Source: an uncultured Gemmatimonadota bacterium (GTDB taxonomy: Bacteria; JAAXHH01). Taken from it: DNA of 64,000 nucleotides. Every line of letters starts with the position of its first letter. Position 1 is the stretch's first letter. Under the pieces are notes generated by a model. The model ran no database searches. It was not told the DNA's origin and worked only from the letters and a program-made list of their open reading frames with translations. Positions 30,366 to 55,544 of this stretch are shown one piece after another. The stretch is taken from the NCBI GenBank assembly GCA_951812955.1, contig OX638340.1, positions 3,744,001-3,808,000 of the forward strand. The letters are read 5' to 3'. The position numbers and the translations under genes are program-made.

Positions 30366-30367
30366 TC

Positions 30368-33390: not shown

Positions 33391-34248
33391 CTACACAACA
33401 CGTTGATCAGCTCGTAATTGTCTTTTTGCAGCGATGCGTTTGCGCCTGAGCATCCCAGCCCAATACTGAATCCCGCTATCCTTAGATTCCCTTGCACACC
33501 TCCGCACTGCAGCACGAAGCACTTTATTATTCTTAAGGTTTTCGATGACTTCTAGTCGTGGGCGAACGGGTCCACGACTTAACCACTCCGCTGCGTCCCA
33601 CGCCGGGTCAAGTTTGCTCTCGGCCGATATTGCTTTTCTAGCCTCTTCCTCGATTCGGTGGTTTATGTCTTTTGGGGTCCAACTGAATATGAGCGACAAT
33701 AGAGCACGTATAATCTCACGATAGACATAGCCAATCATTGGTTCGGCAGTGTTGTTACGACCCTCGATACTTTCGTACCTTTTTGCTACAAAGACTTCGG
33801 CTTTGCCATGTTCCTTAAAATAGTCAACAATATTTGTGTTGGGCTGGATGGACGTGACGCTTTCCAGATATTGGATGGTGCTGTCGAAACATCGCTCCAG
33901 TTCATTAAATGCCGTTATGTTGTGCTTTTGAACATCCGCCAACAGTAGATGTAGTTTGTGCCCACGAGAACGAACCTGATTCTCTGACAGGCCGCCGTCT
34001 ATCAGAATCGCCTTTAGGCCCTTCTCGATTGCTTCGTGAGCATTCTTGGTGTCCGCCCTGATCCTTGCCTTTGAGTATGCTGTGGAGAGTAGTCCAATCT
34101 GAAGGAGTCTTTTGAAGAATTCATCTTCAGATTGTGCATCTAAGTTTGCTGCATCAGTCAGGCGACTATGGATATCGCGCGACGGTCTATCCAGTTCATC
34201 GAGGGCATACCTTAGGTCTGCCCATACGTCTTCCTTTTTTAACGACAT
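33391..34248 (-). CDS. hypothetical protein with HEPN-like motif (R-x4-H), AT-rich island
   Basis: 285 aa, Lys/Glu-rich, lower-GC codon usage; segment EAIEKGLKAILIDGG...RSRGHKLHLLL resembles the HEPN Rx4-6H helix; family not verifiable without search. Confidence 0.5.
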   Translation of the reverse strand: MSLKKEDVWADLRYALDELDRPSRDIHSRLTDAANLDAQSEDEFFKRLLQIGLLSTAYSKARIRADTKNAHEAIEKGLKAILIDGGLSENQVRSRGHKLHLLLADVQKHNITAFNELERCFDSTIQYLESVTSIQPNTNIVDYFKEHGKAEVFVAKRYESIEGRNNTAEPMIGYVYREIIRALLSLIFSWTPKDINHRIEEEARKAISAESKLDPAWDAAEWLSRGPVRPRLEVIENLKNNKVLRAAVRRCARESKDSGIQYWAGMLRRKRIAAKRQLRADQRVV

Positions 34249-37182: not shown

Positions 37183-37985
37183 TAAAGGATTCTCCAATCC
37201 GTCCACACGCCCATGGCCACGAGGCGCACGTATATATCCGAGAAACCGACCCATACCAGGCTCATCCAGGCCCAGGTCATGTGTCCCCGGTTCAAGCACG
37301 AGACGCAGTTGTAACCCGCGTGCCGGACGGGCGCTTTGGACAGATGATCCAGGTACCCGCCGATCAGGTGCCGCAGTGAGTGGCAGCCGAACTGGTAGCC
37401 GCCGAGCAGGACGACGTTCAAGGTCAACACAATGGTTCCGACGCCGATACCGAACGTAGTCTCACCCGTCGCCGCGTCCGTGAACCACATGGCCTTCCAT
37501 GCGTCCTGGACCAGGAAGATCCAGATGATGAATACCAGGTAAAGGAAGTATCGGTGAATGTTCTGCATGATCAACGGGAAGGATTGCTCCCCGCGGTACT
37601 TTTTCCTCGGTTCGGAAACGCTGCAGGATGGCGGGTCAGCCCAGAAAGCCTTGTAGTAAGCGCCCCGGTAGTAATAGCAGGTAATCCGGAATCCGGCCGG
37701 AGCCCAAAGGATTATGAAGGCAGGTGAAAACGGCAGCAGGGCCGGCCACCATACGGGTTTGGGACCGAACAGGGCATGGGACGAACTGCCGAAAATCTCT
37801 GGAGAATAAAAGGGCGACAGGTAGGGGCCCCAGGCGTAGAACTCACCCTGGAAGGCCGCCCAGGTTGAGTAGACGACAAAGGCGGAGAATACGCCGAATG
37901 TCAGTAATTGCTGCGCCCACCATGCGTCTCTGCGTTGCGTCTGACCAAAACCGCTCGTCTTCAGCGAAACACCGGTTGTCGACAT
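37182..37985 (-). CDS. sdhC: succinate dehydrogenase cytochrome b subunit, b558 family
   Basis: 267 aa, five TM, conserved His heme ligands; Bacteroidetes/Bacillus-type single large anchor subunit. Confidence 0.85.
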   Translation of the reverse strand: MSTTGVSLKTSGFGQTQRRDAWWAQQLLTFGVFSAFVVYSTWAAFQGEFYAWGPYLSPFYSPEIFGSSSHALFGPKPVWWPALLPFSPAFIILWAPAGFRITCYYYRGAYYKAFWADPPSCSVSEPRKKYRGEQSFPLIMQNIHRYFLYLVFIIWIFLVQDAWKAMWFTDAATGETTFGIGVGTIVLTLNVVLLGGYQFGCHSLRHLIGGYLDHLSKAPVRHAGYNCVSCLNRGHMTWAWMSLVWVGFSDIYVRLVAMGVWTDWRIL

Positions 37986-38096: not shown

Positions 38097-40211
38097 TTGC
38101 CATGGTTTCGGCATGCTGCCGTCCGCAACAACTGGGATAAAACAATGGCCGGATCAGCCTGTCGGGCAGTATATTCAAACCCTGTTTCGTTACGCGACGC
38201 CGGAACGCCCGGTTCAGTCATGCCGGGCAGACAAGGAAGCCGATCCCACCCGATGCCAGCCGACTCGTCACAGGACGCACGCTCCCCGCGCAGCCCGACC
38301 GGCATCACCCCCCGCGTACTGATCCTGGGGGGCGTTCTGGCCGTATTCATCGCGATCTGGACGCCCCACACCAATTACGTGATGCATGGCCCGAGGCTCA
38401 CCCTGAGCCATATCTCTATCGCGGCCCTGGTTTCCTTTCTCATGGTGATCTTCTGTATGCAGATCCCCCTTCGCAGGTGGCGGCCCGCGCAGGCGTTCTC
38501 CGCGAGCGAACTGGCCGTGCTGTTCGTCTTCTGTCTCGTTTCGTCGACAATTCCGGGCAAGGCTTTCGTGGACTACTTTATCGGAATCCTCGCCTCCCCT
38601 TACTATTACGTTACGCCGGAGAACCGGTGGGCGGATACCTTCTTTCCCCACCTGCCCGGATGGCTGGTCGTCCGGGACGACCTGGGGGCCGCGACGGCGT
38701 TCTACGAAGGCGCCGGCCAGAGCATCATCCTGTGGGTCGAATGGATCGTTCCCCTGTTCTGGTGGATGTGCATGCTGGCGGCGCTGTTCGTGGTCATGGC
38801 CTGCATTTCGGTGATCTTCCGCAAGCAGTGGGTCGAGCACGAGCGGTTGTCTTTTCCCGCGGTCCAGATACCCTCGATGCTCATCAGGGAGACGACCCGG
38901 GGCGGACTGATTCCGGGATTAGTGACGAACCGGTACTTCCAGGTGGGATTCGGGGTCACCTTCGCCCTGCTGGCGTGGAACTGCCTCGCCTATTTCGGCA
39001 CATTCCCCGCCATTCCCGTCGGCGCCGCTTTTAGGACGGAGATTCAACTGGCGCCTTCCGTTCCACCGACCCAGGTGCAGTTCAACCTCTTTATGATGTG
39101 CTTCGCCTATTTCGCCGACTTGAAGGTGTTGTTCAGCATCTGGTTTTTTCACCTGCTCGCCCTGCTGGAGATCAGTCTGCTCAACCAGTTGGGCGTATCG
39201 GCGTCCGGCGTGGCGGGTGGCTCGCAGTTCATCGTGAAGACGGAGCACTTCGGCGGGTTCTGGGTATTCGTACTGTGGGGCATATGGATCGGCAGAAACC
39301 ACCTGAAGGCGGTCTGGCGCAAGGCCCTGGGAAGCGCACCGGAGGTCGACGACTCCATGGAACTGCTGTCCTATCGCACGGCTGTGGGGGGACTGGCCGC
39401 CGGCCTGTGCTACCTGCTGTTCTGGCTTAACAGCATGGGTATGTCGGTCGATGTGGCCGTCCTCTTCCTCCTGATCACGCTCGCGCTTTATGTGGGCGTC
39501 ACCCGCATCGTCGCAGAGACGGGGCTCGTTTTCCTCGATCTACCGGTCAACTCGAACGAAATGACGGTGGCCGTCATCGGTTCGAGCAACCTGTCGCCTT
39601 CGAACCTCACATCCCTCGGACTGACCCACGCCATCTCCCACAACCACCGGGGCATCGGCCTGTCTTCGCTGATTCACGGCGTGAAGGCCTCCGAAGGCTT
39701 CGCCCGGTCGAGAAAAGGACTGTTCGCCGCGGTGTGCGTATTGCTTGCGCTCACGTTCATCGTCACGAACGGCTACACGATATACGCCGGGGCGACCGGT
39801 ACCGGGGCCCATGATTTCGCCCCGCTTCGGGCCGATAACTTCTACGACCAGCTGGCCACCTGGTTCAACAATCCCTACACCCTGTCCTACGAGGAAATCT
39901 ATTTCCTGCTCCTGGGTGCTGTCATTACCTGCGGTCTCCTGTTCATGCAGTACCATTTCGCCGGGTGGCCCTTCCATCCCATCGGATACATCGTGGCCTA
40001 CGCCGACATCATCAACTTCGAAATCACGTCGATCTTCATGATCTGGCTGATCAAGGTGCTGCTGCTGAGGCTGGGCGGGTTCGACATGTACCGGAGGATG
40101 CAGCCTGCCGTGATCGGCGTGCTGCTGGGCTACGCGGCGGGGGTGACCCTGTCTCTTGCCGTCGATGTCATCTGGTTCCCCGGCCAGGGGCACAACGTGC
40201 ACAACTGGTAG
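38097..40211 (+). CDS. polytopic membrane protein of unknown function (paralog A; >=12 TM)
   Basis: Shares with the convergent neighbour the blocks SP(E/Y)N(R/Q)W, IPLFWWM, VIFRKQWVEHERL(S/R)FP, NPIG(Y/F) and overall collinear hydrophobicity; true start uncertain (several in-frame Met). Confidence 0.7.
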   Translation: MPWFRHAAVRNNWDKTMAGSACRAVYSNPVSLRDAGTPGSVMPGRQGSRSHPMPADSSQDARSPRSPTGITPRVLILGGVLAVFIAIWTPHTNYVMHGPRLTLSHISIAALVSFLMVIFCMQIPLRRWRPAQAFSASELAVLFVFCLVSSTIPGKAFVDYFIGILASPYYYVTPENRWADTFFPHLPGWLVVRDDLGAATAFYEGAGQSIILWVEWIVPLFWWMCMLAALFVVMACISVIFRKQWVEHERLSFPAVQIPSMLIRETTRGGLIPGLVTNRYFQVGFGVTFALLAWNCLAYFGTFPAIPVGAAFRTEIQLAPSVPPTQVQFNLFMMCFAYFADLKVLFSIWFFHLLALLEISLLNQLGVSASGVAGGSQFIVKTEHFGGFWVFVLWGIWIGRNHLKAVWRKALGSAPEVDDSMELLSYRTAVGGLAAGLCYLLFWLNSMGMSVDVAVLFLLITLALYVGVTRIVAETGLVFLDLPVNSNEMTVAVIGSSNLSPSNLTSLGLTHAISHNHRGIGLSSLIHGVKASEGFARSRKGLFAAVCVLLALTFIVTNGYTIYAGATGTGAHDFAPLRADNFYDQLATWFNNPYTLSYEEIYFLLLGAVITCGLLFMQYHFAGWPFHPIGYIVAYADIINFEITSIFMIWLIKVLLLRLGGFDMYRRMQPAVIGVLLGYAAGVTLSLAVDVIWFPGQGHNVHNW

Positions 40212-40247: not shown

Positions 40248-42260
40248 CTAGAATATCTCGGCGATATGGGGGGTGTCGGGGAAATACACTGTATCGACGA
40301 CGTAGGCGGCCAGGACCCCGACCGCATAACCCACGAGAATCCCCAGGAACAGAGGCTGGGCCTTCCGGTACAACCCGACGCCGCCAACACGGAGGAGGAT
40401 GACCTGCACGATCCATGCGACGAAGAGGGTGAAGACGACCCCCCGGATGGGTCCCGAAGCGCCAATGGCGAATCCGATGGGATTGAGCGGCCACCAGTAG
40501 AAGAGGTACCTGCCCAGGGCCAGCAGCGTGCTGATGGCCATACCCGCCGCGAGGAACAGGATTTCGAGGGTGGAGATCTGCGTGGCGTTCTTCATCCACT
40601 TCACCACCAGGTCGAAGAAAAGGTTCCCGGTGTTGCGCAGGTTGATGTGGAGGTTGTCCGCCCCTTCCGCGTAACCGGAGTAGACGACGTATCCCGTCGA
40701 GATCGCCGTCCCGGCAACAAAAGCGAGGCATATCAGCAGGAATAGCCGTCCCCGGTTCTCCCCGAGATAGTCGCGCCACCAGGCGACGTGGGAAAGACCG
40801 ACCATGGTGAAGGTGCGCCAGTTACGCGCGAAGGCGTTGGTCAGTCCCAGACCGGTCAGCGTCGACCCCGAAAGGCTGGCCGAACCCACCATTCCTACCG
40901 TGAAGGCGTGGGCGTTGATGGGCAGGTCGAGGTTGATTAGGCCCGCCTCGGCGAGGACGCGGGCAATGCCGAAATAGAATACCAGGAGGAAGAAAAGAAA
41001 GAGCATGGCGACGGGGATGGAGAATCCGATGGCGCTGAGCCAGGCGGTCATGAAGAGCACGCCCAGGACCAGGCCGACGACCGCCGTTCGGTAGGAGAAC
41101 AGTTCATCTTCGTCCCGCAGGTCGCTCTCCCTTCCGAGGGATTTACGCAGGACGTTGCGGATGTGTTTCCGGGCCATCCAGCCGCCGATCAGGGCGAACA
41201 TGATCAGTCCGCCGCAGAACTGGATGGACACGAGTCCGCGGGGTACGATCGTCTCGGCGGGCGAGACCACTCCGAAGCGGTTGAGCAGGCCTGTTTCCAG
41301 GATGCCGAGCACCTGGAAGAACCAGACACTGAAGAGGATCTCGACGTTGACGAAGAAGGCAAAGCACAGGACGTAAGGCACGAGCCGAATGGCGACAGGC
41401 GGGAAGGAGGGATCGATGACCACGTTGAAGACCGGTCCGGGCAGGGGGATGTGGGGCAGTACGCCCCAGAATCCGATGATGTTCCAGGACATGATGGCCA
41501 GGCTGGCCGCGAAACCGACCTGGAAAAGCCGGTTACCGAAGAGGGACGGCCATCTCCCGGGCGTGTTCCCGTCGGTTTCGACCAGGCGCAGGATGACCTC
41601 GCCCATGGGGAAACGGAGCCGCTCGTGTTCCACCCACTGTTTCCGGAAGATCACGACCAGGCAGGCGCCGATGAAGAGCAGCGTGCCCAGGGCCGACATC
41701 CACCAGAAGAGCGGTATGACCCAGTCCTGCCACGGGATCGGCAATCCGGCAGGCCGCCCCTCGAAGAAATCCGAGACTTGCCCCTTGTCATTGGGGATGA
41801 CCGCCCATTCAGGCAAGTACGCGAAAAAGTGGGCCTCCCACTGGTTTTCCGGACTCGCGAAGTAATGGGGCGCGGTGATTACGCTGATGAGATAGCGGAC
41901 CATGCCCCAGTCCGGCACCATGGCCGCGATCAGTCCCATGGCGAAAATGACCAGGAGTTCCGGCCTTGTCAGCGCGGCGTCCCGGTATATTAAGCGGATC
42001 AGTGTGTTCGGCAGCAGGACCAGGAAAAGGAAGGGAATGACCAGACTAAGCGGCATCTGGGGGAAGGTCAGATAGTTGTAGTTCAGCTGTGCGGAGGCGT
42101 GTTGTCCCCAGAAAGCGACGCAGCACGCGAAAGCCAGGCCCAGGACGGCCGTTTTGAGGGATATGGGTTTCACGGTCATGCCTGGTCTAGTCCGGCCGCG
42201 CAGGAAGTCATTCCTGGATGGAGGCTGTGCCGCGCTTGAGCCAGAAGCCCCCGTCGACAC
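40248..42260 (-). CDS. polytopic membrane protein of unknown function (paralog B; >=12 TM)
   Basis: Collinear homolog of 38097..40211 (same conserved blocks); start may be the internal Met at 42179. Confidence 0.7.
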   Translation of the reverse strand: MSTGASGSSAAQPPSRNDFLRGRTRPGMTVKPISLKTAVLGLAFACCVAFWGQHASAQLNYNYLTFPQMPLSLVIPFLFLVLLPNTLIRLIYRDAALTRPELLVIFAMGLIAAMVPDWGMVRYLISVITAPHYFASPENQWEAHFFAYLPEWAVIPNDKGQVSDFFEGRPAGLPIPWQDWVIPLFWWMSALGTLLFIGACLVVIFRKQWVEHERLRFPMGEVILRLVETDGNTPGRWPSLFGNRLFQVGFAASLAIMSWNIIGFWGVLPHIPLPGPVFNVVIDPSFPPVAIRLVPYVLCFAFFVNVEILFSVWFFQVLGILETGLLNRFGVVSPAETIVPRGLVSIQFCGGLIMFALIGGWMARKHIRNVLRKSLGRESDLRDEDELFSYRTAVVGLVLGVLFMTAWLSAIGFSIPVAMLFLFFLLVFYFGIARVLAEAGLINLDLPINAHAFTVGMVGSASLSGSTLTGLGLTNAFARNWRTFTMVGLSHVAWWRDYLGENRGRLFLLICLAFVAGTAISTGYVVYSGYAEGADNLHINLRNTGNLFFDLVVKWMKNATQISTLEILFLAAGMAISTLLALGRYLFYWWPLNPIGFAIGASGPIRGVVFTLFVAWIVQVILLRVGGVGLYRKAQPLFLGILVGYAVGVLAAYVVDTVYFPDTPHIAEIF

Positions 42261-42987
42261 GCAGGACTTCCCCGGTGATGTAGTCCGCCGCGTCGGAACA
42301 CAGAAAGGTGGCCGCCTTGCCCAGGTCTTCGATCGTGCCCATCCGGCCCCAGGGCAGCCGCCTGCCGCCTTCCTCCAGTTCCTGCTCCGTCGAGTACTGT
42401 CGTTCGCCCGGCGTGTCGGTCCATCCCGGTTCGATCACATTCACGCGGATGCGGTGCTCCAGCAGTTCCAGGGCGATGATGGCGGCCATGTGGTTCATGC
42501 CGGCCTTAGCGGACGAATAGGACAGGGAGGTGGGGAAGGGGAGGAAGGACATGACCGAGCTGATGAAGAGGATACTGCCGCCTTTTTTCGCGTCCACCAT
42601 CTTCCGGGCGCCCGACTGCGCGACATGGAAGGCGCCGAAGAGGCTGACTTCGTAAGTTTTCTTCATTTCGTCCACGTCCATTGCGAGAAAAGGCTCCCGC
42701 GTGGAATAGTAGGCGTTGGCCACCACGATATCGGGTCCGCCGAGTTCCTTCGCCGTCTGATCCACCATGTCGTCCACGGCGGACCGGTCGGAGGCGTCCG
42801 CGCCGACGAGGATCGCCCGACGGCCCATGGACCTGATTTCCTCGGCGACGGCCTCGCCGTCGTCCCGGTGGCTGAAGTAGTTGACGGTGACGTCCGCCCC
42901 GGCCCGGGCCATCTCCAGTGCGATGCCCTTGCCGATGCCCCGGGACGAACCACTGATCAGCGCTGTCTTGCCCGTCAGGTCGATCAT
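42208..42987 (-). CDS. SDR family oxidoreductase
   Basis: ISGSSRGIG cofactor motif, YSSAK catalytic motif; start at MIDLTG (42987); the longer ORF-track N-terminus is translation of an upstream tandem repeat. Confidence 0.85.
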   Translation of the reverse strand: MIDLTGKTALISGSSRGIGKGIALEMARAGADVTVNYFSHRDDGEAVAEEIRSMGRRAILVGADASDRSAVDDMVDQTAKELGGPDIVVANAYYSTREPFLAMDVDEMKKTYEVSLFGAFHVAQSGARKMVDAKKGGSILFISSVMSFLPFPTSLSYSSAKAGMNHMAAIIALELLEHRIRVNVIEPGWTDTPGERQYSTEQELEEGGRRLPWGRMGTIEDLGKAATFLCSDAADYITGEVLRVDGGFWLKRGTASIQE

Positions 42988-43032
42988 GGTTCCCTCGATT
43001 CGAAATACATGGTGAACGGTACGAATGTCCCG

Positions 43033-43201
43033 AGCGGCCGCACGATCGGGAGTGCCCGTACGACCGGGAGTGCCCGTACGACTAGGAGTACCCGCGAGAT
43101 CGAGATCGGCCGCACGATCGGGAGCTGTTGAACGATACAGGCGTGCCCGCGCGATCAAGCGCGACAGCGCGATCAAGCGTGACAGCGCGATCGGGATCGA
43201 C
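43033..43201. repeat. intergenic compound tandem repeat (18-bp units: cgaYcgggagtgcccgta x3; cgcgatcaagcgYgacag x3; ggccgcacgatcggg x2)
   Basis: Directly visible; between the TIM-barrel isomerase stop and the SDR start. Confidence 0.85.
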
Positions 43202-43217: not shown

Positions 43218-43994
43218 TCAAAGCTTCATGGCGGTCATGTTGCGGTAGCTGACAGCGATACTGTCGAAGGGGTCGCCGGCGCAGGTGTCCTGTTCGACGA
43301 CGTACCACTGGGACCCCGCGGTCTCGCATGCAGCGACGATGCCGGACCAGTTCATGTTGCCCTCGCCGATCTCGGCCATCACCTGTTCCCGTCCCGACAC
43401 GCCCAGGTCCTTGAAATGGATGACCGGGCACCGGTCCCGTACCCGGCCGATCCAGTGTATGGGGTCCCCACCGCCGTACTGGATCCAGTAGGTGTCGATT
43501 TCAAAGCACAGGGCGGGGTCGCTCTCCTCCACGAGGATGGCCAGCCCGGTCCGACCGCCCACCCGCACGAGTTCCGTGTGGTGGTTGTGGTAGCTGAAGG
43601 ACATGCCCGCTTCCTGCAACCCGATGGCCACGGCAGACGCGTCCACCGCGAACCGCGAAAAACCGTCCGGATCGTCCCAGTAGGATCTCGGCATGGACCC
43701 GACGGCTATATGCTCACATCCCCAGAGGCGGTGTTCGGCGGCGACTTCATCCGGTTTCTCCTGCAGCCGTTCGAAGGGTACGTGCGTGGCGCAGACGTGC
43801 AGGCCGGCGTCCCGGATCATGGCGCCGAGTTCCGCGGGGTCGACAGGACCCAGGGCCGATAGCTGTATGTGGTCGTAGCCGATGGACTTGACTCTCTTCA
43901 GGGTGTCCGCGATATCGGCCGGCGTCTGCACGAAGTCGCGTAAAGTATAGAGTGTAACGGCGATCTTGCTGTCTGGCATCCATCTCTCCTTCAT
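43218..43994 (-). CDS. sugar phosphate isomerase/epimerase (xylose-isomerase-like TIM barrel)
   Basis: 258 aa; AP-endonuclease-2/xylose-isomerase-like TIM motifs; start ATGA-overlaps the upstream sulfatase stop. Confidence 0.85.
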   Translation of the reverse strand: MKERWMPDSKIAVTLYTLRDFVQTPADIADTLKRVKSIGYDHIQLSALGPVDPAELGAMIRDAGLHVCATHVPFERLQEKPDEVAAEHRLWGCEHIAVGSMPRSYWDDPDGFSRFAVDASAVAIGLQEAGMSFSYHNHHTELVRVGGRTGLAILVEESDPALCFEIDTYWIQYGGGDPIHWIGRVRDRCPVIHFKDLGVSGREQVMAEIGEGNMNWSGIVAACETAGSQWYVVEQDTCAGDPFDSIAVSYRNMTAMKL

Positions 43995-45433
43995 TTTTCC
44001 ATAGGTTCAAAAGCAGGCGAATCATCCTCCCACGCGCCGCCGACCGGACGAAGTTGCCCGAGTCCTGTAACGGGCCGTAGCCGCCCGTCACGATCCGGAT
44101 CGGCGTATCGTTCGAACCAGCCTTCCAGTTCCCCGCGGAGCGATCTGCATCGGCCGGCATATCCGGCATCTTCCGCGAGGTTGGCCCGTTCGTCCGGGTC
44201 ATTCTCCAGGTCGTACAGTTCGTTCGGTCCCTCGGTATACCGGTGCACGTACTTCCACGATTCGGTCCGGATCATGCGCGTGCCGCCGTATTCGTCGAAA
44301 ATCACCACGTGGTCCCGGCTCGCATCGTCCCGGCCCGTCCAGGCGTCCAGGGTGTTCCGCCCCGGCAGGTTGCGGTCCCAGGGTACGGGCAGGTCCAGGT
44401 ACGACAGCAACGTGGGCATGAAGTCGTAAGCGCTGAGCATGGCCTCTTGCACGAATCCTTCGGGCAGGCGTCCTGGCTGGCTGACCAGGGCGGGTACCCG
44501 GATGGAGTTCTCGTACATGTTTAACGGGCTCGTCCCGTTTCCTTTCCCCCAGAATCCGTGGTGTCCCAGGCTGAAACCGTTGTCGCTCAAGAAGATAACC
44601 AGGGTGTTTTCGCGGATGCCGTGCCGGTCGAGCCGGTCAAGCAGGCGGCCTACGTCGAGGTCCATGGCCGTGACGGCCGCGAAGTAGCCCTTCAGGCTTT
44701 CGCGGTCGCCCATGCATTCGCGGGTCAGGCCGCCGGCCCAGGGATGGATGGGTTCCTGCGGACAGGATGCGAAGGCGCAGTCGTCGTAGGAATCGACGAT
44801 GTCCTGCGGATGGCCCGTCCACGGGCTGTGCGGCGCGGTATAATGGACGCCGAGGTAGAACGGTTCTTCCTGGTTGGCGTGGCGGTCGATAAAGGCGAGG
44901 GCGTCGTCGGTAATGACATTCGTGACGTATCCCGGTTCGTTGACCGGGACGCCGTCGCGCACCATGGGGGCGTTGTTGTAGGGCCCGCCGCCGAACTGGT
45001 GGGCGAACCAGTGGGAAAACCCGTGCTGGGTCAGGGTGCTGTTGCCCAGGTGCCACTTGCCGCTGAGGCCGCATCGCCACCCATGGTCCGCGAGCACATC
45101 GGTGTACGCCGTTTCGCCCTCGAGGTATGAAGCCGCGTCCTCCCCGACGTTGCCACCCCGGATCCAGTCGTGCACGCCGTGCTGGGAGGCGATCCGGCCG
45201 GTCAGCAGCGTCGCGCGGCTGGGCGAGCAGACTGGCGTGGCCACGAAGAACCGGTCGAAGCGCACCCCGGTCTGCGCGATTCGGTCGATGTTCGGCGTGC
45301 GTATTTCGGAATTGCCGTAGCAGCCCGCCGCCCAGACGCCCTGGTCGTCGGTAAGGATGCAGAGCACGTTCGGTCGGGACGAAACCATGGCATGTCCTGG
45401 GATCGAGTGGTTATCCTGTGCGTGATTCATCAA
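43991..45433 (-). CDS. sulfatase (arylsulfatase family)
   Basis: Formylglycine motif C-S-P-S-R (PVCSPSRATLLTGR); LTDDQG metal site; no obvious signal peptide; alternative start 45388. Confidence 0.85.
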   Translation of the reverse strand: MMNHAQDNHSIPGHAMVSSRPNVLCILTDDQGVWAAGCYGNSEIRTPNIDRIAQTGVRFDRFFVATPVCSPSRATLLTGRIASQHGVHDWIRGGNVGEDAASYLEGETAYTDVLADHGWRCGLSGKWHLGNSTLTQHGFSHWFAHQFGGGPYNNAPMVRDGVPVNEPGYVTNVITDDALAFIDRHANQEEPFYLGVHYTAPHSPWTGHPQDIVDSYDDCAFASCPQEPIHPWAGGLTRECMGDRESLKGYFAAVTAMDLDVGRLLDRLDRHGIRENTLVIFLSDNGFSLGHHGFWGKGNGTSPLNMYENSIRVPALVSQPGRLPEGFVQEAMLSAYDFMPTLLSYLDLPVPWDRNLPGRNTLDAWTGRDDASRDHVVIFDEYGGTRMIRTESWKYVHRYTEGPNELYDLENDPDERANLAEDAGYAGRCRSLRGELEGWFERYADPDRDGRLRPVTGLGQLRPVGGAWEDDSPAFEPMEK

Positions 45434-45679
45434 GCATGGGAAAGCGTAGAACGAATTGCCAAATTAGCGTCCCACAAGCGGATTGTCACGCAGATTCTAC
45501 CCGCCCTCCCGGTCCAATTGGCGTTGCCATGCGTCCGCCCCATCCCGTATATTGTCACCCGCGACACCGGTGGAATGGCTAGTGTGCCCGCCCGGTGCAT
45601 CGGGACGAGTGAATCCGACCCGTTAAGAACAGATTGGTGTACGGACCCATGTCGACGGGCACTGGAGGGGACTGGCGTT

Positions 45680-46711
45680 ATGATACAAGCAGGTATCGTG
45701 GGCTACGGCCTGGCGGGTCGTTTATTCCATGCCTACCTGGTCTCGCGGACCGATGGGTTGAAACTGAAGGCCGTCGCCAGCCGGGATCCGGAACGGAGGG
45801 CACAGGCGGTACGGGACTGGTCCGTGGATACCTATGAGACCTTGACCGGTCTCCTGTCGGACGACGATATCCAGCTCGTCATCCTGGCCACGCCCCACCA
45901 TACCCACGCATCTCTGGCCATCGAGGCCATGGAGGCGGGAAGACACGTGGTCGTCGACAAGGTCATGTGCATGTCGGCCGCCGAAGCCGAGGAAATGATC
46001 GCGGTCAGCAAGCGTCGCGGGGTCACGTTGAGCGTCTTCCACAACCGCCGCTGGGACTGGGGTTATCTTACCGTGCGCAAGGCGGTGGAAGACGGCCTGC
46101 TGGGCGATCCCTTCCTGATCGAACGGTCTGTGCACCGGTTCCGGGCTTCCCGGGGCTGGCGGACAAACCGGTCGGAGAGCGGCGGCCTGCTCTACGATTG
46201 GGGCGCCCACCTCATCGACCAGGGGTTGCAGTTGCTGGGCGCCCTTCCCGACGCGATCCATTGCAAGGGGCACAAGTACCGGTGGGAAGGTGACATCGAG
46301 GATCACGTCACCTGTACCCTGTATTTCGAGAACGGCGCCGAATATCGCATTGAAATCAGCAATTTGTCCCGTATAGCAAAACCCCACTGGTACGTTCTGG
46401 GCACCCGGGGCTCCCTTGTCAAGACAGGCCTCGACCCCCAGGAGGACTGGATGAAGAATGGCGAGATCGAGGCCGCGGAGGAGGCCCCCGAAGACCGCGT
46501 CAGGGTTGCCGCGGAACGGGACGGCGAGGCCTTGGAGATGACCCTCGATCCGGTGAAGGGCAGTTGGGTGGATTACTACCGGAACATCGCAGCCGTGCTG
46601 GACAGTAGCGCGGAACTCGCCGTAAAGCCCGGCGAGATGCTGGACCTGATGAGGGTGCTGGACGCCGCCACGGAATCCCTGGAATCCGGGCGGGTGGTAT
46701 CGATGAAATGA
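45680..46711 (+). CDS. Gfo/Idh/MocA family oxidoreductase
   Basis: N-terminal Rossmann (GIVGYGLAG), DKVMCMS/EKP-like region; the ORF-track 5' extension to 45170 is unsupported. Confidence 0.85.
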   Translation: MIQAGIVGYGLAGRLFHAYLVSRTDGLKLKAVASRDPERRAQAVRDWSVDTYETLTGLLSDDDIQLVILATPHHTHASLAIEAMEAGRHVVVDKVMCMSAAEAEEMIAVSKRRGVTLSVFHNRRWDWGYLTVRKAVEDGLLGDPFLIERSVHRFRASRGWRTNRSESGGLLYDWGAHLIDQGLQLLGALPDAIHCKGHKYRWEGDIEDHVTCTLYFENGAEYRIEISNLSRIAKPHWYVLGTRGSLVKTGLDPQEDWMKNGEIEAAEEAPEDRVRVAAERDGEALEMTLDPVKGSWVDYYRNIAAVLDSSAELAVKPGEMLDLMRVLDAATESLESGRVVSMK

Positions 46712-47778
46712 GGATCGAACGGAACATGGAACCCAGGCGAATGGTCATTCTCACGGAGGGGAGTCTGGGCACGTTCTCGTCCAAGACGGCCGCTTCGCTC
46801 ATCCGCTACAAGCCCGATGAAACCGTGGCGGTGCTCGACAGCGTGCACGCAGGCAGGAATTTGGAAGACCTGCTCGAGGTCGGGCGGGGCATCCCGGTCG
46901 TGTCGACGTTGAAAGAAGCGCTGGCGTTCAGACCGACCTCGCTGGTTATCGGGATCGCTACGCCGGGCGGCATCTTGCCCGCAGCATGGCGAGCGGTCAT
47001 CCACGAGGCGATCGAGCACGGGCTCGAGGTGGTAAACGGGCTTCATACCTTTTTCGGCGAGGACGAAGAATTCGCCCGTCACGCCGAGAGGAAGGGCGTT
47101 CGGCTGTGGGACGTGCGAAAGCCGCCGGACGACCTGGATGTAGGGCGTCACGCGGTTCACGGCCTCCCGAATCTTCGTGTGCTGACCGTAGGCGCCGATT
47201 CGAGCATCGGCAAGAAGATCGCCGCGATCGAAATCAGCCGTGCGGCCCGCGAGACAGGATGGGATGCCGAGTTCGTAGCTACAGGGCAGACCGGTATTAT
47301 GATCGCTGGATCGGGCATCGCGGTGGACACCGTGGCGGCGGACTACATATCGGGTGCCGTGGAACGGCTTGTGCTAGAAAGAAAGGACCGGGAACTGCTG
47401 GTCATCGAAGGCCAGGGCACGGTCCTGCATCCGTCCTATTCCGGTGTATCGCTCGGCCTGTTGCACGGCGCGGCGCCGCAGGCCCTGGTGCTTTGCCACC
47501 AGCCCGGCCGTGACGTGATGCGCAATCTGCCCGTAGCCGTGCCGTCCTACGAAGAGATGATTCACGTTCACGAGACGATCGCCCGGCCGCTGTTTCCCTG
47601 CCGGGTCGCGGCGGTTTCGCTCAATTGCTTCGGCATGTCCATGGACGATGCCAGGCGCGAAGTGGACCGGGTCGCGCAGGAGACCGGACTTCCGGCGACG
47701 GACTGCGTGAAATTCGGATGCGATCCGATTCTGGAGGCCCTTGAGCCCCTGAAGGTTCCGTCGACGAAACCTACCTGA
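46708..47778 (+). CDS. DUF1611 domain protein (DgcN-like)
   Basis: ATGA overlap with the upstream stop; N-terminal Rossmann-like plus P-loop-like GADSSIGKK segment typical of DUF1611. Confidence 0.7.
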   Translation: MRIERNMEPRRMVILTEGSLGTFSSKTAASLIRYKPDETVAVLDSVHAGRNLEDLLEVGRGIPVVSTLKEALAFRPTSLVIGIATPGGILPAAWRAVIHEAIEHGLEVVNGLHTFFGEDEEFARHAERKGVRLWDVRKPPDDLDVGRHAVHGLPNLRVLTVGADSSIGKKIAAIEISRAARETGWDAEFVATGQTGIMIAGSGIAVDTVAADYISGAVERLVLERKDRELLVIEGQGTVLHPSYSGVSLGLLHGAAPQALVLCHQPGRDVMRNLPVAVPSYEEMIHVHETIARPLFPCRVAAVSLNCFGMSMDDARREVDRVAQETGLPATDCVKFGCDPILEALEPLKVPSTKPT

Positions 47779-47788
47779 TGAAGCCGGA

Positions 47789-49135
47789 GTGCGTAAGATG
47801 AACATCCGAATACTTACTGCCGAAGAGGCCGTGACGGGCATCCTGAAGCGGCGGCCGTTGAACGAGGCCATGTCGGCTGCCGGGATCGAAGAACGGAACA
47901 GGGAACTGTTCGGCAAGGCCCTGACGGCGGAACAGGCCGTAGCGACCATAATCGACGATATTCGAAAGAGCGGGGACGATTCGGTAAGGCACTACGCCCG
48001 GTTGCTGGATGGGCAGGCACCATCTGCCCTCGAAGTCCCGCGGAGCGAGATCGACGAGGCGGCGGCATCGCTGCCTTCCAGTTTGCGTGATGCGCTGGAA
48101 ACGGCGGCCGAACGCATCCGGTCGTTTCACGAAAAGCAAACGTTCGAGTCCTGGACGCACTGGGACGAAGAGGGCGGTACCGGACAGATCGTGCGGCCGC
48201 TGGACCGGGTCGGCGTCTACGTACCCGGCGGCGGGGCCGCCTATCCATCCTCACTGCTGATGGCCGTGATCCCCGCCCGAGCGGCCGGAGTCCGGGAGGT
48301 CGTCGTGGCCACGCCCCCAGGAAGGGACGGAGCTGTACCGTCCGCGGTTCTGGCCGCTGCTTCCGTGGCGGGTGCCGACGCGGTATACCGTATCGGAGGT
48401 CCACAGGCGATCGCGGCGATGGCCCATGGTACCGAGTCCATTTCACGCGTCGACAAGATCGTGGGTCCGGGTAATGTATTCGTGACCCTGGCCAAGCGCC
48501 AGGTGTACGGGATCGTGGACATCGACCAGCTGGCCGGTCCCACTGAAACCCTGCTGATCGCCGACGATACGGCCAGTGCGGAATTAGCGGCGGCAGACCT
48601 GCTGGCGCAGGCCGAACACGATACCATGGCGAGCGCCATACTGATCACGCCGTCGTCCGGGCTGGCCCTGGCGGTGCAAAACGCCCTGGATGAACAGTTG
48701 GCCGAACTGGACCGGGCGGAAATAATCCGGTCCTCCCTGCAACATAACGGAGGGATCGTGCTGGTCTCGAGCCTCGAAGAAGCGGTTGAACTGGCAAACG
48801 CCTACGCACCGGAGCACCTGTGCCTGCTCGTCGCGGATCCATGGACCCTTGTGGACAGCATCCGGCACGCCGGGGGAATCTTCGTGGGAGAACACTCTTC
48901 AGAGGCCCTGGGGGACTACGTCACCGGACCGAGCCATATCATGCCCACCGGGGGCAGCGCCCGTTTCCATTCTCCCTTGAGTGTGCGCGATTTCCTGAAG
49001 ATCACCAGCCTGTTCGCGGTCAATGAACTGGCTGAGAAAAGGTTGGGACCTACCGCAATCAGGCTGGCGGAAGCAGAAGGCCTTTCGGCCCACGCCATGG
49101 CCATACGAAGAAGACGCTCAAGCGACCGAGACTGA
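47789..49135 (+). CDS. hisD: histidinol dehydrogenase family protein (HisD-like; true hisD vs paralog such as sulfopropanediol dehydrogenase unresolved)
   Basis: Aligns by eye with E. coli HisD motifs (GGPQAIAAMA, AQAEHD, GPEHL, GDY..GPSH..PT); 10 nt after the DUF1611 gene. Confidence 0.8.
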   Translation: MRKMNIRILTAEEAVTGILKRRPLNEAMSAAGIEERNRELFGKALTAEQAVATIIDDIRKSGDDSVRHYARLLDGQAPSALEVPRSEIDEAAASLPSSLRDALETAAERIRSFHEKQTFESWTHWDEEGGTGQIVRPLDRVGVYVPGGGAAYPSSLLMAVIPARAAGVREVVVATPPGRDGAVPSAVLAAASVAGADAVYRIGGPQAIAAMAHGTESISRVDKIVGPGNVFVTLAKRQVYGIVDIDQLAGPTETLLIADDTASAELAAADLLAQAEHDTMASAILITPSSGLALAVQNALDEQLAELDRAEIIRSSLQHNGGIVLVSSLEEAVELANAYAPEHLCLLVADPWTLVDSIRHAGGIFVGEHSSEALGDYVTGPSHIMPTGGSARFHSPLSVRDFLKITSLFAVNELAEKRLGPTAIRLAEAEGLSAHAMAIRRRRSSDRD

Positions 49136-49146
49136 CGCTTTCCGTA

Positions 49147-49304
49147 CCGGCCGGGATGGCCTCACACCGCCCGGCCGGGATGGCCTCACACCGCCCGGTT
49201 CGCCCACCGCCCGGCTCGCCCTGCCCACCAGCCCGGTTCGCCCACCGCCCGGCTCGCCCTACCCACCAGCCCGGTTCGCCCACCGCCCGGCTCGCCCTGC
49301 CCGC
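49147..49304. repeat. intergenic compound minisatellite (24-bp unit x2, then 38-bp unit x ~2.8)
   Basis: ccggccgggatggcctcacaccgc x2; ccggttcgcccaccgcccggctcgccctgcccaccagc x3 (last truncated); between convergent hisD-like and HpcH genes. Confidence 0.9.
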
Positions 49305-50059
49305 TACCTTCCGACTTCGGCGAGGGCCGCCTGGGCCGCCTGAGCCAGGAAACCCATGTCGCTCCCTAGGGTGATCCACTGGAATCCCTCCGCGATGCGC
49401 TTCCTGTTGATGTCCATCGTGGTGGAAGCGTAACCGCCGGGCACGCCGAGTTCCTTCGCCCGGTTTATGATCCCCTCGACCACCTTTTCCACTTCGGGAT
49501 GGACCGGCTCACCCACGTAGCCGTGTGACGCCGCGAGATCGTTCGGTCCGACCAGGAACGCGTCGACGCCAGGGGTGGTAAGTATCTCATCCAGGTTCTC
49601 GACGGCCTCGACGGTTTCGATCTGGACCATGATAAACGTTTCCTCGTTGGCGGTACGGAGGTATTCTGCCAGGTCCTGACCCGAGATGTTGAGGAAACGG
49701 GCGCCCATGCCGCGAATGCCCATGGGCGGATACTTGGCCGCGCGGACCGCATATTCCGCCTGCTCCCGGTTGTTGACCCAGGGGATGATCAGGCCCTCCG
49801 CACCGATGTCCAGCGCCTTCTTGATGTGCACCATGTCGTTCCAGGGCACGCGGACGAGGGGCGTGACGTCCCGGCCCCGGGTCGTCTGGATCATGGGATG
49901 GAGCATTTCCGTGTTCGTGGGACCGTGTTCGGCGTCGAACCAGATCCAGTCGAAGGGAAGGTTCGCAACCAGTTCCACGATGTCGGTACAGGGTGTTCCG
50001 ACGGATACGCCATAGGTCACTTCGTCATTGCGCAGCTTTTCCTTAAGCCGGTTCTTCAT
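49304..50059 (-). CDS. HpcH/HpaI family 2-keto-3-deoxy-sugar-acid aldolase
   Basis: Pyruvate/PEP-utilising TIM barrel with metal-binding E/D; start at MKNRLKEKL (50059) with AGGAG SD; the ORF-track 5' extension is unsupported. Confidence 0.85.
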   Translation of the reverse strand: MKNRLKEKLRNDEVTYGVSVGTPCTDIVELVANLPFDWIWFDAEHGPTNTEMLHPMIQTTRGRDVTPLVRVPWNDMVHIKKALDIGAEGLIIPWVNNREQAEYAVRAAKYPPMGIRGMGARFLNISGQDLAEYLRTANEETFIMVQIETVEAVENLDEILTTPGVDAFLVGPNDLAASHGYVGEPVHPEVEKVVEGIINRAKELGVPGGYASTTMDINRKRIAEGFQWITLGSDMGFLAQAAQAALAEVGR

Positions 50060-51939: not shown

Positions 51940-52362
51940 ATGGCGAATTCATCACAATCAGATCAACTGGAAGAGGGAACGCAAGAGGTCCTGGATTTCT
52001 CGAAACTCCGGCAGATAGCCGGCATCGAAGAAGAGGTCCTGCCGGTCGTCGTCCAGGATTCGGCAACGAAGGAAGTACTGATCGTGGCCTATGTCAATCG
52101 CCTGGCCCTGGACGAATCCCTGAAGACCGGTATCGCCACGTTCTGGAGCACTTCGCGGAACGAACTGTGGATCAAGGGCGCCACGTCGGGAAACGCCCTG
52201 CGCATCGATGAAATCCGCATCAACTGCGAGCAGAACTCCGTGTTATTCCTTGTAACGCCCCAGGGTTCCGGGGCATGTCACACGAAGGACAGTGACGGCC
52301 GTTACCGCACCGGCTGCTATTACCGCCGTATGAGGTCATCCGGAGAACTTGAGTTCGTCTGA
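51940..52362 (+). CDS. hisI: phosphoribosyl-AMP cyclohydrolase (HisI, standalone)
   Basis: LPVVVQD, WSTSRNELWIKGATSGN, C..C-HT zinc site consistent with the HisI fold. Confidence 0.8.
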   Translation: MANSSQSDQLEEGTQEVLDFSKLRQIAGIEEEVLPVVVQDSATKEVLIVAYVNRLALDESLKTGIATFWSTSRNELWIKGATSGNALRIDEIRINCEQNSVLFLVTPQGSGACHTKDSDGRYRTGCYYRRMRSSGELEFV

Positions 52363-53432: not shown

Positions 53433-54137
53433 TCACACCGACCGCGTTATGCCCCCGTCGACGCGCAGGTTCTGGCCCGTGATATAGCCCGAACCGGGTG
53501 ACAGCAGGAATGCGGCCGTTGCCGCGATCTCCTCCACCGTGCCGTAGCGTCCCATTGGAATGCGCGACCTGAATGCTTCCGATTCGGGGAGACTGTCGAT
53601 GAATCCCGGCAGGAGATTGTTCATCCGGATGTTGTCGCCGGCGTGGTTGTCGGCATAGATCTTCGAAAAACTCGCCAGGGCCGCTCTGAAAGGCGTCGAA
53701 ACCGGGAAGTAATGCTCCGGTTCGAAGGCGGCGAAGGTGGATATGTTGACGATCGAACCGCCGCCCTGTTCCACCATGATCGGGGTGACCAGGCGCGCCA
53801 TGCGCACCACATTGAGAAACACGATATCCAGTCCCTCGTGCCAGTCTTCGTCCGGTATATCCAGCAGGCTGCCCTTAGGCGGATGGCCGGTGCTGTTGAC
53901 GACGCCATCAATCCGGCCGTGGGCTTCCATGGTCAGGTCCACCAGCTTTCGCAGGTCGGCTTCGTCCGTGACGGAGCCCGTCACGCCGATGCCTCCCAGT
54001 TCACTTGCGAGTGATTCCGCCGCTCCGGAGGGAGACAGCAACGCGACGGCCCACCCTTGTCCGGCCAGGTTGCGCGCGATGGCCGCTCCCATGCCCCTTC
54101 CCGCTCCCGTGATGACCGCTACTTGTTGCGAACTCAT
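53433..54137 (-). CDS. SDR family oxidoreductase
   Basis: TGAGRGMG cofactor motif; classic SDR length. Confidence 0.85.
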   Translation of the reverse strand: MSSQQVAVITGAGRGMGAAIARNLAGQGWAVALLSPSGAAESLASELGGIGVTGSVTDEADLRKLVDLTMEAHGRIDGVVNSTGHPPKGSLLDIPDEDWHEGLDIVFLNVVRMARLVTPIMVEQGGGSIVNISTFAAFEPEHYFPVSTPFRAALASFSKIYADNHAGDNIRMNNLLPGFIDSLPESEAFRSRIPMGRYGTVEEIAATAAFLLSPGSGYITGQNLRVDGGITRSV

Positions 54138-54449
54138 AACTCTCCCTTCGGCGTATTGACCGTTTTAAGCCATGCAGGATGTCGCTGGAACGATTTCGGC
54201 TCGTCTCCATGCAGATTCGATATCTGTTGATGTAGACGCACGTCTCGAACATGGCGGTATATAAACAAATGCATTGCAGTAATCAATGGGAGAATATAGC
54301 GTTAATCCGGTTAGCACCGATCCGGTTCAGCAGGAGCGAATCCCGGCGATTCATCGGTTAACGGGCCGGTTTCGAGTCGCAGACCGCATTGGGACCCACA
54401 TCGTGTGAACAATTGCGACCGCAGTATATCACATACCGCAGGACGGCAC

Positions 54450-55544
54450 ATGAAGATAACCGGACTGAAAACCCACTCCGTCCACGTGAATCACCGGGGA
54501 GACTGGACGTTCCTGGCAGTGCTCACGGATGAAGGAATAACCGGTTTCGGCGAGGTGAATCCCGGAGGGGCCCGATCCGGGAGCGTGGACTTCCTGCAAC
54601 AAGCCGAACCGGTTCTCGCAGGTCGCGACCCCGGCAGCATCGAACGCATCCTGGCCGAACTCCTGCCTTCGCCCACCGACCGGTCTAAAGTAATGGCCCT
54701 GAGCGCCCTCGACCAGGCCCTGTGGGACATCAAGGGCAAGACCCTGGGCGTGCCCGTGGCGGACGTCATCGGGGGACGATGCCATGATGAGATTCCCCTT
54801 TATGCCAACATAAACCGGGCTACGACCGACCGGACGCCCGCGGGGTTCGCCCGGAACGCGGCCGCCGCGGTTTCGGATGGATTCGACGCCGTAAAACTGG
54901 CCCCCTTCGACGGGATGCCAGGCGGGATCGACCGGGCCTCCGACGCCCGCGAAGGCATTGCCTGCATGGAAGCGGTGCGTGAAGCGATCGGTCCGGAGGT
55001 CTCCCTGTTGATCGACTGCCACAGCCACTTCTCCGCCCGGGGCGGGTGCGAGGTATTCGACGCCCTCAGGGACCTGGACCTTTACTGGTACGAGGAACCC
55101 GTGCCCGATGAAGACCACGAGGGCTACCGGGCCATACGGGATCATATCGACGTGCCGCTGGCCGGAGGCGAAAGCCTGATGTACCTGGAGGGGTTCTGGC
55201 CCGTGGTGGACCAGGGTCTGATGGACGTCATCATGCCGGACGTGACGATCGTGGGCGGACTGTGGGAACTGAAGAAGGTCGCCGCCATGGCTGAAGGCAG
55301 GGGGATTCCCACCGCGCCGCACGGACCCTTCGGACCTTTGACCATCGCGGCAGGCGTTCAGGCCATGGCCGCCCATCCCCGCTTCCAGATTCTGGAATAC
55401 GCCTGGGGGGAGGTGCCGTGGCGGCACGAATTGATCGTACCGCCGGAGCGGATCGAAGACGGCAGGATCCGGGTATCGGACCGGCCCGGTCTCGGTGTCG
55501 AACTGAACATGGAAGCCATCGACGCGTACCGGGTAGACCGGTAG
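54450..55544 (+). CDS. enolase-superfamily enzyme (mandelate racemase/muconate lactonizing, sugar-acid dehydratase-like)
   Basis: Capping domain plus TIM barrel with KxK, D, E, D metal ligands (LIDCHS.., YWYEEP, LAGGES); start at MKITGLK. Confidence 0.85.
   Translation: MKITGLKTHSVHVNHRGDWTFLAVLTDEGITGFGEVNPGGARSGSVDFLQQAEPVLAGRDPGSIERILAELLPSPTDRSKVMALSALDQALWDIKGKTLGVPVADVIGGRCHDEIPLYANINRATTDRTPAGFARNAAAAVSDGFDAVKLAPFDGMPGGIDRASDAREGIACMEAVREAIGPEVSLLIDCHSHFSARGGCEVFDALRDLDLYWYEEPVPDEDHEGYRAIRDHIDVPLAGGESLMYLEGFWPVVDQGLMDVIMPDVTIVGGLWELKKVAAMAEGRGIPTAPHGPFGPLTIAAGVQAMAAHPRFQILEYAWGEVPWRHELIVPPERIEDGRIRVSDRPGLGVELNMEAIDAYRVDR

Follow-up and report, generated by a model that had tools for sequence, protein, structure and literature searches.

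Classical histidinol dehydrogenases (HisD), such as those of E. coli (PDB 1K75/1KAE) and Brucella suis (4G07), belong to a fold family that has a second described branch. HpsN, a HisD paralogue of organosulfur catabolic clusters, shares with HisD both this fold family and the four-electron Zn2+/NAD+ chemistry (PMC11382572, PMC12814064), and acts as (R)-DHPS 3-dehydrogenase or L-cysteinolate dehydrogenase (PDB 8V35 and 8WWE; PMC11382572, PMC12814064). In CpHpsN the sulfonate is bound by His126, which lies in the motif G-R-Y-A/S-H, and by Lys353; His126 also binds zinc, and Lys353 adjoins the zinc-binding Asp (PMC11382572). For the DUF1611 family the closest described system is the DgcN-DgcA module for D-glutamate conversion, which secondary descriptions present as a DUF1611 N-acetyltransferase working with an enolase-superfamily N-acetyl-D-Glu racemase. 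Apart from these descriptions, the literature searched mentions DUF1611 just twice, both times incidentally. Among Gfo/Idh/MocA oxidoreductases, the closest described proteins are of the YvaA/YhhX/YdgJ type.

The locus described here combines members of these three families. It lies in a 64-kb stretch of DNA (the window), whose features relevant to the analysis are as follows.

40248-42260, minus strand, DUF6785/DUF6784 membrane protein, in the sulfatase cluster
42208-43176, minus strand, SDR, in the sulfatase cluster
43218-43994, minus strand, xylose-isomerase-like TIM barrel, in the sulfatase cluster
43991-45433, minus strand, Cys-type sulfatase lacking an obvious signal peptide (Pfam, NCBIfam), first gene of the divergent cluster
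45524-45553, plus strand, promoter-like site TTGCCA-18-TATATT upstream of Gfo, a consensus match only
45680-46711, plus strand, Gfo/Idh/MocA NAD(P)-dependent oxidoreductase of the YvaA/YhhX-like subgroup, 343 aa (Pfam PF01408, PF22725, PF02894)
46708-47778, plus strand, DgcN-like DUF1611 protein with a Rossmann-like N domain and a P-loop C domain (PF17396, PF07755), likely start ATG 46726
47798-49135, plus strand, hisD, histidinol dehydrogenase, 445 aa from ATG 47798, alternative GTG start at 47789 (PF00815, TIGR00069)
49147-49302, no strand, strain-specific tandem repeats (24 bp x 2.2 and 38 bp x 3.0)
49304-50059, minus strand, HpcH/HpaI-family 2-keto-3-deoxy-acid aldolase, convergent with hisD (PF03328; TIGR02311 216 bits, below cutoff)
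51940-52362, plus strand, monofunctional hisI, phosphoribosyl-AMP cyclohydrolase (PF01502, 84 bits)
54405-55544, MR_MLE gene of the sugar-acid dehydratase type, the sole MR_MLE in the window

The Gfo, DUF1611 and hisD genes lie head to tail on the plus strand. With the first-called starts they are packed as a preliminary description of this DNA had reported, with an ATGA overlap at 46708-46711 and a 10-nt gap at 47779-47788, and Pfam and NCBIfam agree with its assignment of the three families. Both downstream genes probably start later. Because relatives of the DUF1611 protein (341-350 aa) open with MEKRRMV or MDKRRMV, its true start is probably ATG 46726, and that of hisD is probably ATG 47798, because the homologue at the related locus L177 opens with MTSLLRILT. 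The gaps are then 14 and 19 nt, and the packing is still tight. No terminator-like site was found between the three genes, and Rfam gave no match to a riboswitch, leader or T-box anywhere in the window. The promoter-like site falls within the 246 bp that separate the divergent sulfatase and Gfo genes; in the region 45300-49400 we found 2 such sites against 0.9 expected from shuffles. The tandem repeats take up the intergenic space that separates the hisD stop from the HpcH aldolase gene, and are not present in the equivalent spacer of L001 and L014.

Unlike in classical his operons, hisD has no adjacent hisC, hisB, hisH, hisA or hisF in the window, and is instead preceded by Gfo and DUF1611. 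Its reported isolation from his genes other than a standalone hisI holds within the 64-kb window, where hisI, 2.8 kb downstream, is the only other his gene; purC, pdxJ and pyrG likewise stand alone. The hisI protein reaches 103.5 bits against NF000768, below the cutoff of 126, and the relative position of its gene is kept in L001, L004, L013-L016 and L042. In two further relatives (L006 and L007), a gene for a PHP-family histidinol-phosphatase lies two genes downstream of hisD (PRK07328 223 bits, cutoff 202; TIGR01856 133 bits, cutoff 90).

Judged from its sequence, the third gene encodes a true histidinol dehydrogenase (HisD, EC 1.1.1.23). The protein matches TIGR00069 over its full length with 514.6 bits (cutoff 243.8) and PF00815 with 521 bits (cutoff 27). 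Named HisD structures match it with 364 (4GIC), 363, 327 (4G07), 276 (E. coli 1K75) and 250 (plant) bits, whereas the PDB chains of HpsN/DHPS dehydrogenases are the weakest matches (206-237 bits), below any solved HisD. The zinc ligands, the Glu-His pair and the substrate-contact residues are identical to those of the classical enzymes. Q271, H274, D373 and H432 correspond to the E. coli zinc ligands Gln259, His262, Asp360 and His419, E339/H340 to the catalytic pair Glu326/His327, and Y374, H380, E427 and S151 to Y361, H367, E414 and S140 of the substrate pocket. At E. coli position 138 the window HisD has Y149, and the HisD type at this position is Leu or Tyr, not His. Together, Y149/Y374/H380/E427/S151 form the pocket pattern of 44 his-operon HisDs, 4GIC and 4G07.

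The same residues recur in the HisDs of relatives. Q259, H262, E326, H327, D360, Y361, H367, E414, H419 and S140 (E. coli numbering) are identical in 11/11 DUF1611-linked HisDs, and position 237 is Thr in these proteins, likewise in 44/44 his-operon HisDs. The residue at the His126 position of HpsN is Tyr149 in the window HisD (motif G-G-A-A-Y, as in 4GIC and 4G07), and none of the 11 clade members has His there. At the Lys353 position, the window HisD and all 11 members carry Tyr (Tyr374, in G-D-Y). An HpsN or cysteinolate dehydrogenase identity was rejected on these marker residues and on the PDB scores.

The phylogeny points the same way. In a neighbour-joining tree of 91 sequences, built without bootstrap support and without an HpsN outgroup, the DUF1611-linked HisDs group as a single clade, which is nested within Chloroflexota HisDs that are encoded in hisD-hisC-hisB-hisH-hisA-hisF(-hisI) operons and are 50-61% identical to the window HisD. 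The preliminary description had proposed a HisD paralogue, similar to sulfopropanediol dehydrogenase, that acts in a new oxidation route for a sugar, sulfo-sugar or amino alcohol. This proposal finds no support; the clustering among his-operon HisDs, the full histidinol active site, the lack of both sulfonate markers and the presence of other his genes nearby in two sublineages speak against it. Our genome scan could detect a HisD only through an exact 8-residue word in common with the query. Every complete chromosome came up a single time, which, given this requirement, is silent on a divergent second hisD.

All three Pfam domains of the Gfo protein (PF01408, PF22725 and PF02894, an N-terminal Rossmann and a C-terminal alpha/beta domain) score above their cutoffs and are common to YvaA/YhhX/YdgJ-type proteins; the window protein differs in reaching no NCBIfam equivalog model (PRK11579 217 bits against a cutoff of 330). 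Its best PDB matches, 3E82, 3GDO (B. subtilis YvaA) and 3F4L (YhhX), are uncharacterised oxidoreductases and YvaA. The DUF1611 protein scores 220 bits against PF07755 and 103 bits against PF17396, matches 2OBN, 7XRJ and 2G0T in the PDB, and retains the family-invariant residues, among them G162, D164, G168 and K169 of the G-x-D-x-x-x-G-K P-loop, in an alignment that includes MR_MLE-linked homologues.

The DUF1611 protein shares the DUF1611_N + DUF1611 architecture with DgcN, and the DgcN model NF041892 is its best named model, with 284.2 bits, which is below the equivalog cutoff of 480. Homologues up to 56% identical to it pair with MR_MLE genes, as DgcN does; the partners of the clade's DUF1611 genes are instead Gfo, hisD and, in relatives, Ldh_2. 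Neither the window nor any of the clade relatives has a DgcA-type MR_MLE adjoining DUF1611. The lone MR_MLE of the window (54405-55544) scores 210-222 bits against galactonate and gluconate dehydratase models and 27 bits against DgcA. With the DgcN score under its cutoff and this MR_MLE of the sugar-acid dehydratase type, we rejected a DgcN-DgcA module at this locus.

Conservation of the trio is limited to a single clade of uncultured bacteria, whose metagenome-assembled genomes were labelled Gemmatimonadetes, Latescibacterota or Zixibacteria by their submitters. Between sublineages, HisD is 60-67% and Gfo 57-66% identical. For instance, identity between the window and L006 is 62% for HisD and 72-73% for DUF1611, the TIM-barrel protein and the sulfatase. 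Gfo diverges about as fast as HisD; all other proteins of the neighbourhood are consistently better conserved. Most carriers share about 10 flanking genes, and the HpcH/HpaI aldolase is conserved in most relatives. The sulfatase cluster adjoins the trio in L001, L004, L006, L007, L013-L016, L042 and L095; L009 keeps the cluster with only small ORFs where the sulfatase would be. In L177 and L178, every flanking gene is different and the sulfatase cluster is absent, and the trio is intact. The DUF1611-hisD junction is a 4-nt overlap in L177 and 19-22 nt in the window and L009.

Individual members of the trio have also been lost. L004 and L092 lost Gfo by deletion, leaving a scar that encodes its last 25 aa (E = 3e-5), and L095 lost hisD, keeping Gfo-DUF1611-Ldh_2 and a 31-aa hisD-like relic. 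At 80 metagenomic DUF1611 loci from outside the clade, hisD was absent from the flanks in every case and an MR_MLE gene lay nearby in 23; three further DUF1611 homologues are paired with MR_MLE, not hisD. In L093 and L179, MR_MLE holds the coupled position downstream of DUF1611 that hisD holds in the clade. Conservation of the DUF1611-hisD adjacency, on which the preliminary description had placed weight, is therefore found within the clade, even where the flanks have changed (L177 and L178), and not at the 80 loci outside it.

We consider it likely that this is a housekeeping hisD, probably co-transcribed in one clade behind two genes that most likely have another role. HisD would most likely perform the last two steps of histidine biosynthesis, the Zn2+/NAD+-dependent four-electron oxidation of L-histidinol through L-histidinal to L-histidine. 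Biosynthetic genes stand singly in this genome. In the clade, hisD has come to follow Gfo and the DgcN-like DUF1611 directly, and their promoter probably drives it as well; its reliance on such a common transcript would hold the trio together. The two upstream proteins most likely act on another substrate and would have no metabolic link to HisD, Gfo most likely as an NAD(P)-dependent sugar or cyclitol dehydrogenase and DUF1611, by homology to DgcN, probably as an acyl-CoA-dependent N-acyltransferase. We count in favour of this reading the family scores, the active site, the absent HpsN markers and the phylogeny, together with the nearby his genes in two sublineages, the scattered genes, the independent losses and the 0/80 result outside the clade. 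Against it, pure hitch-hiking need not preserve tight junctions across about 60% HisD identity, the hisD deletion in L095 is easier to explain by a dispensable second copy, and HisD is among the least conserved proteins around it. That the closest relatives outside the clade are Chloroflexota HisDs would also be compatible with an extra copy gained by horizontal transfer.

The abundance of sulfatases, which the preliminary description had pointed out along with sugar-acid genes and which we also find, together with the existence of HpsN as a known HisD paralogue, could suggest an HpsN-type sulfonate alcohol dehydrogenase that acts on DHPS or cysteinolate with the sulfatase cluster. In L006, L007 and L009 an Ldh_2 gene similar to sulfolactate dehydrogenase even overlaps the hisD stop and would fit such a route. 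The best named NCBIfam match of this Ldh_2 is L-sulfolactate dehydrogenase; however, its 237 bits are far under the cutoff of 500, and ureidoglycolate and malate dehydrogenase models score similarly. The window has no Ldh_2 gene, nor was an Ldh_2 relic found downstream of its hisD, and neither sulfolactate lyase or DHPS genes near hisD nor suyAB, hpsOP or xsc-type neighbours among the window genes were seen. With both marker residues missing in 11/11 members and the low HpsN scores, this reading is close to refuted, and we regard it as extremely improbable. Simple phylogenetic inertia, in which the adjacency reflects recent shared ancestry and has neither transcriptional nor functional meaning, would account for the placement of all carriers in one monophyletic HisD clade and for the flanking genes that most of them share. 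The deep divergence of HisD and Gfo between sublineages, the retention of the trio amid wholly different flanks in L177 and L178, and the short or overlapping spacers lacking a terminator-like site make it very unlikely, and suggest that at least a shared transcript is under selection.

A true functional module would go beyond this. HisD, possibly a second copy from Chloroflexota, would then work alongside DUF1611 and Gfo, the substrate being histidine, histidinol or an imidazole amino alcohol closely derived from them; synthesis or breakdown of histidine or histidinol carrying an N-acyl group is one example. The trio stays together in sublineages whose HisDs are about 60% identical and through a full change of flanks, its junctions are tight or overlapping, the clade's DUF1611 has lost its usual MR_MLE partner and has hisD in that coupled place, and hisD is dispensable in L095, all of which would fit a module. 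On the other hand, Gfo and hisD have each been lost independently with the remainder kept, neither the trio nor the DUF1611-hisD pair occurs at the 80 loci outside the clade, and the HisD active site cannot be told apart from those of his-operon enzymes. Moreover, hisI and the histidinol-phosphatase gene cluster around hisD, and we found no known chemistry linking the three families. We therefore see such a module as rather unlikely. The more specific version, a real three-enzyme module of the clade in which DUF1611 has given up its epimerase partner and acts with HisD, is distinctly unlikely; it could mean that histidine or histidinol is N-acylated, or that histidinol is supplied by a different route, and DUF1611 would gain a second, histidine-linked function.

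With an ordinary biosynthetic HisD in a housekeeping role, the locus gives no indication of a new amino-alcohol or sulfo-sugar pathway. When a HisD-family gene stands away from the his operon, surrounded by genes for sulfatases and sugar-acid metabolism, it is tempting to annotate it as an HpsN-like catabolic enzyme; here the His126/Lys353 markers and the gene-context phylogeny would mark the protein as an ordinary biosynthetic one. For the poorly understood DUF1611/DgcN family, the clade provides a defined and conserved context for study, in which one DUF1611 subfamily has given up its usual MR_MLE partner and instead has Gfo and hisD as neighbours, joined in relatives by Ldh_2.

The window sequence bears out the preliminary description of three co-oriented, tightly packed ORFs, with exact coordinates, an ATGA overlap between the Gfo and DUF1611 genes and a 10-nt gap between DUF1611 and hisD. 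All three gene families that it had named were recovered by both Pfam and NCBIfam:

45680-46711, + strand: Gfo/Idh/MocA oxidoreductase, an ORF at exactly this place (Pfam and NCBIfam)
46708-47778 (likelier start ATG 46726), + strand: DUF1611 protein (Pfam and NCBIfam; homologue starts)
47789-49135 (likelier start ATG 47798), + strand: histidinol-dehydrogenase-family protein (Pfam and NCBIfam; homologue start)

The revised starts are likelier because homologues begin there: DUF1611 homologues begin MEKRRMV or MDKRRMV, and the HisD of locus L177, in a relative, begins MTSLLRILT. With these starts, the gaps within the trio become 14 nt and 19 nt. A promoter-like site lies upstream of the Gfo gene, no terminator-like site was found between the trio genes, and an Rfam search of the entire 64-kb window returned no leader or riboswitch.

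To judge from its sequence, the third gene is a canonical hisD within a lineage-specific operon context. On TIGR00069, the model for hisD, the protein reaches 515 bits (cutoff 244). In a comparison against all PDB chains, it matched named histidinol dehydrogenases at 364, 363, 327 (4G07), 276 (E. coli) and 250 (plant) bits, and the weakest family members were the HpsN/DHPS dehydrogenases (206-237 bits). We mapped the active site onto E. coli HisD using the alignment to it together with a MAFFT alignment of 91 sequences. The zinc residues Q259, H262, D360 and H419, the catalytic E326 and H327, and S140, Y361, H367 and E414 (E. coli numbering) are all kept. The sole difference at the checked sites is Thr for Ser237, and Thr is common to all 44 his-operon HisDs compared. 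Sulfonate dehydrogenases such as CpHpsN are separated from HisD by His126, which ends a G-R-Y-A/S-H motif, and by Lys353, which contacts the sulfonate (PMC11382572). At the corresponding positions the window protein instead reads G-G-A-A-Y and G-D-Y, as do all 11 members of the clade of DUF1611-linked HisDs and the solved HisD structures 4GIC and 4G07.

The nearest matches in the databases (77-98% identity) are proteins of uncultured bacteria whose genomes, several of them complete 3.7-3.9 Mb chromosomes, are labelled Gemmatimonadetes or Latescibacterota by their submitters. HisDs with 50-61% identity belong to Chloroflexota, many of them in hisD-hisC-hisB-hisH-hisA-hisF(-hisI) operons. Neighbour joining, with E. 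coli HisD as the root, puts the DUF1611-linked HisDs into a single clade that is nested among the Chloroflexota enzymes from such operons. The window HisD groups with his-operon HisDs, and the new oxidation route that had been proposed around a HisD paralogue is not supported.

Annotation of the other candidate genes across the 64 kb of the window agreed that hisD is isolated from other his genes except a monofunctional hisI (51940-52362). Further biosynthetic genes of the window, purC, pdxJ and pyrG, are likewise solitary. Two sublineages each have a different his gene near hisD: hisI in the window lineage and, in L006/L007, a PHP-family histidinol-phosphatase two genes downstream of hisD that scores above the PRK07328 and TIGR01856 cutoffs. 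Histidinol-phosphatase makes the substrate of HisD.

The arrangement is stable inside the clade, with the trio present in L001, L013-L016, L042, L006/L007 and L009. Most of these loci also retain a divergent sulfatase, (MFS), TIM barrel, SDR and DUF6785 cluster, as well as HpcH aldolase and PhyH genes. In L177/L178, from a MAG labelled Zixibacteria by its submitter, the complete trio Gfo-DUF1611-hisD is present, DUF1611 and hisD overlapping by 4 nt, although all flanking genes differ from the other loci; the trio is therefore kept together as a unit. Nevertheless, the first and the last gene have each undergone a single loss. In L004/L092 Gfo is gone except for its last 25 codons, which persist before DUF1611 (L004, about 8816-8890; E = 3e-5). 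L095, a sister of L009 with 73-83% protein identity, keeps Gfo-DUF1611-Ldh_2 and lacks hisD; what remains between DUF1611 and Ldh_2 is a hisD-like relic of 31 residues (9004-9096), interrupted by an in-frame stop. This relic scores 28.9 bits, and the best of 200 shuffles reached 21.9. These remnants look like gene-deletion scars. The Ldh_2-family gene shares 8 nt with the stop end of hisD in L006/L007 (L006, 11334-12407) and L009 (11355-12422), lies directly 3' of DUF1611 in L095 (9183-10250) and is absent from the window and its lineage. Among named models, L-sulfolactate dehydrogenase matches it best, at 237 bits far under the cutoff of 500, and the scores of the Ldh_2 protein on ureidoglycolate and malate dehydrogenase models are similar.

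The Gfo protein is a member of the YvaA/YhhX-like sugar or cyclitol dehydrogenases. The DUF1611 protein keeps all family-invariant residues, including the P-loop. Among named families it comes closest to DgcN, which supplies the N-acetyltransferase step in the DgcN-DgcA D-glutamate pathway, but the protein scores under the DgcN model cutoff and has no racemase partner. DUF1611-hisD adjacency is conserved in the clade but vanishes outside it: in a set of 80 metagenomic loci with DUF1611 genes of 41-53% identity, hisD is missing from all flanks and 23 loci have an MR_MLE gene nearby. The individual homologues examined at 56% identity or less have an MR_MLE enolase-superfamily gene overlapping or near. 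These more distant DUF1611 genes, of Brocadia and other Planctomycetota (L093, 6001-9484; L179, 8001-10858; L096), also have peptidase M20, CstA, creatininase or Asp/Glu racemase in the vicinity, apparently the usual D-amino-acid or peptide setting of this family. That the DUF1611 subfamily here has changed partners is a modest point of remaining interest.

The simplest account is that hisD in the trio would be an ordinary biosynthetic gene. The pathway genes would be dispersed in the genome, and hisD would have joined, in the ancestor of the clade, two unrelated genes in a single transcription unit; reliance on the shared promoter would then hold it in place. The data leave room for an accessory copy, given the loss of hisD in L095, the somewhat faster divergence of HisD than of most neighbour proteins and the closeness of HisD to Chloroflexota HisDs. 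That the trio outlasted the change of flanking genes leaves room for a genuine functional module, a reading that we consider unlikely. An HpsN-like role is highly improbable, as both sulfonate markers are missing and HpsN chains are the weakest PDB matches.

Several further features of the window were recorded:

6465-6526, 16451-16525, 18518-18579, 27025-27190, 29823-29881, 43038-43094, 43149-43192, 49147-49302: repeat arrays
27198-28733, 28817-29776: second sulfatase and Gfo/Idh/MocA pair, 17 kb upstream of the trio
38097-40211 (+ strand), 40248-42260 (- strand): two convergent genes for 670-704-aa proteins, each with DUF6785 and DUF6784 domains
3456-5390, 8439-9212, 30320-31150, 33391-34248, 37182-37985, 62596-63993: sizeable ORFs without a Pfam match

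The repeat arrays have periods of 15-60 bp and a different unit in each, and most lie in or fill intergenic spacers; that at 18518-18579 lies at the 3' end of a predicted ORF (17129-18619). Behind hisD, two arrays (24 bp x 2.2, 100% match; 38 bp x 3.0, 96% match) are strain-specific and fast-evolving, because neither occurs in the corresponding spacer of L001 (95% protein identity) or L014. L001 also carries an insertion (16534-18946) between its SDR and MR_MLE dehydratase genes, containing an N6_N4 methyltransferase-HNH gene and an IS1595 transposase, that is absent at window 54137-54405. Downstream of hisI, L004 (a 77%-identity relative) has defence-like genes at 14508-21344, encoding ZorA-like, EH_Signature and OmpA-like proteins and an SNF2/Mrr helicase-nuclease, suggestive of a Zorya-type system. 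The DUF6785/DUF6784 proteins of the window had no NCBIfam match. One copy always stands beside the SDR, TIM-barrel, (MFS), sulfatase cluster in relatives, and the protein may be an uncharacterised transporter for the substrate of that cluster. Four of the six ORFs without a Pfam match (3456-5390, 30320-31150, 37182-37985 and 62596-63993) passed the GC3 coding-bias filter.
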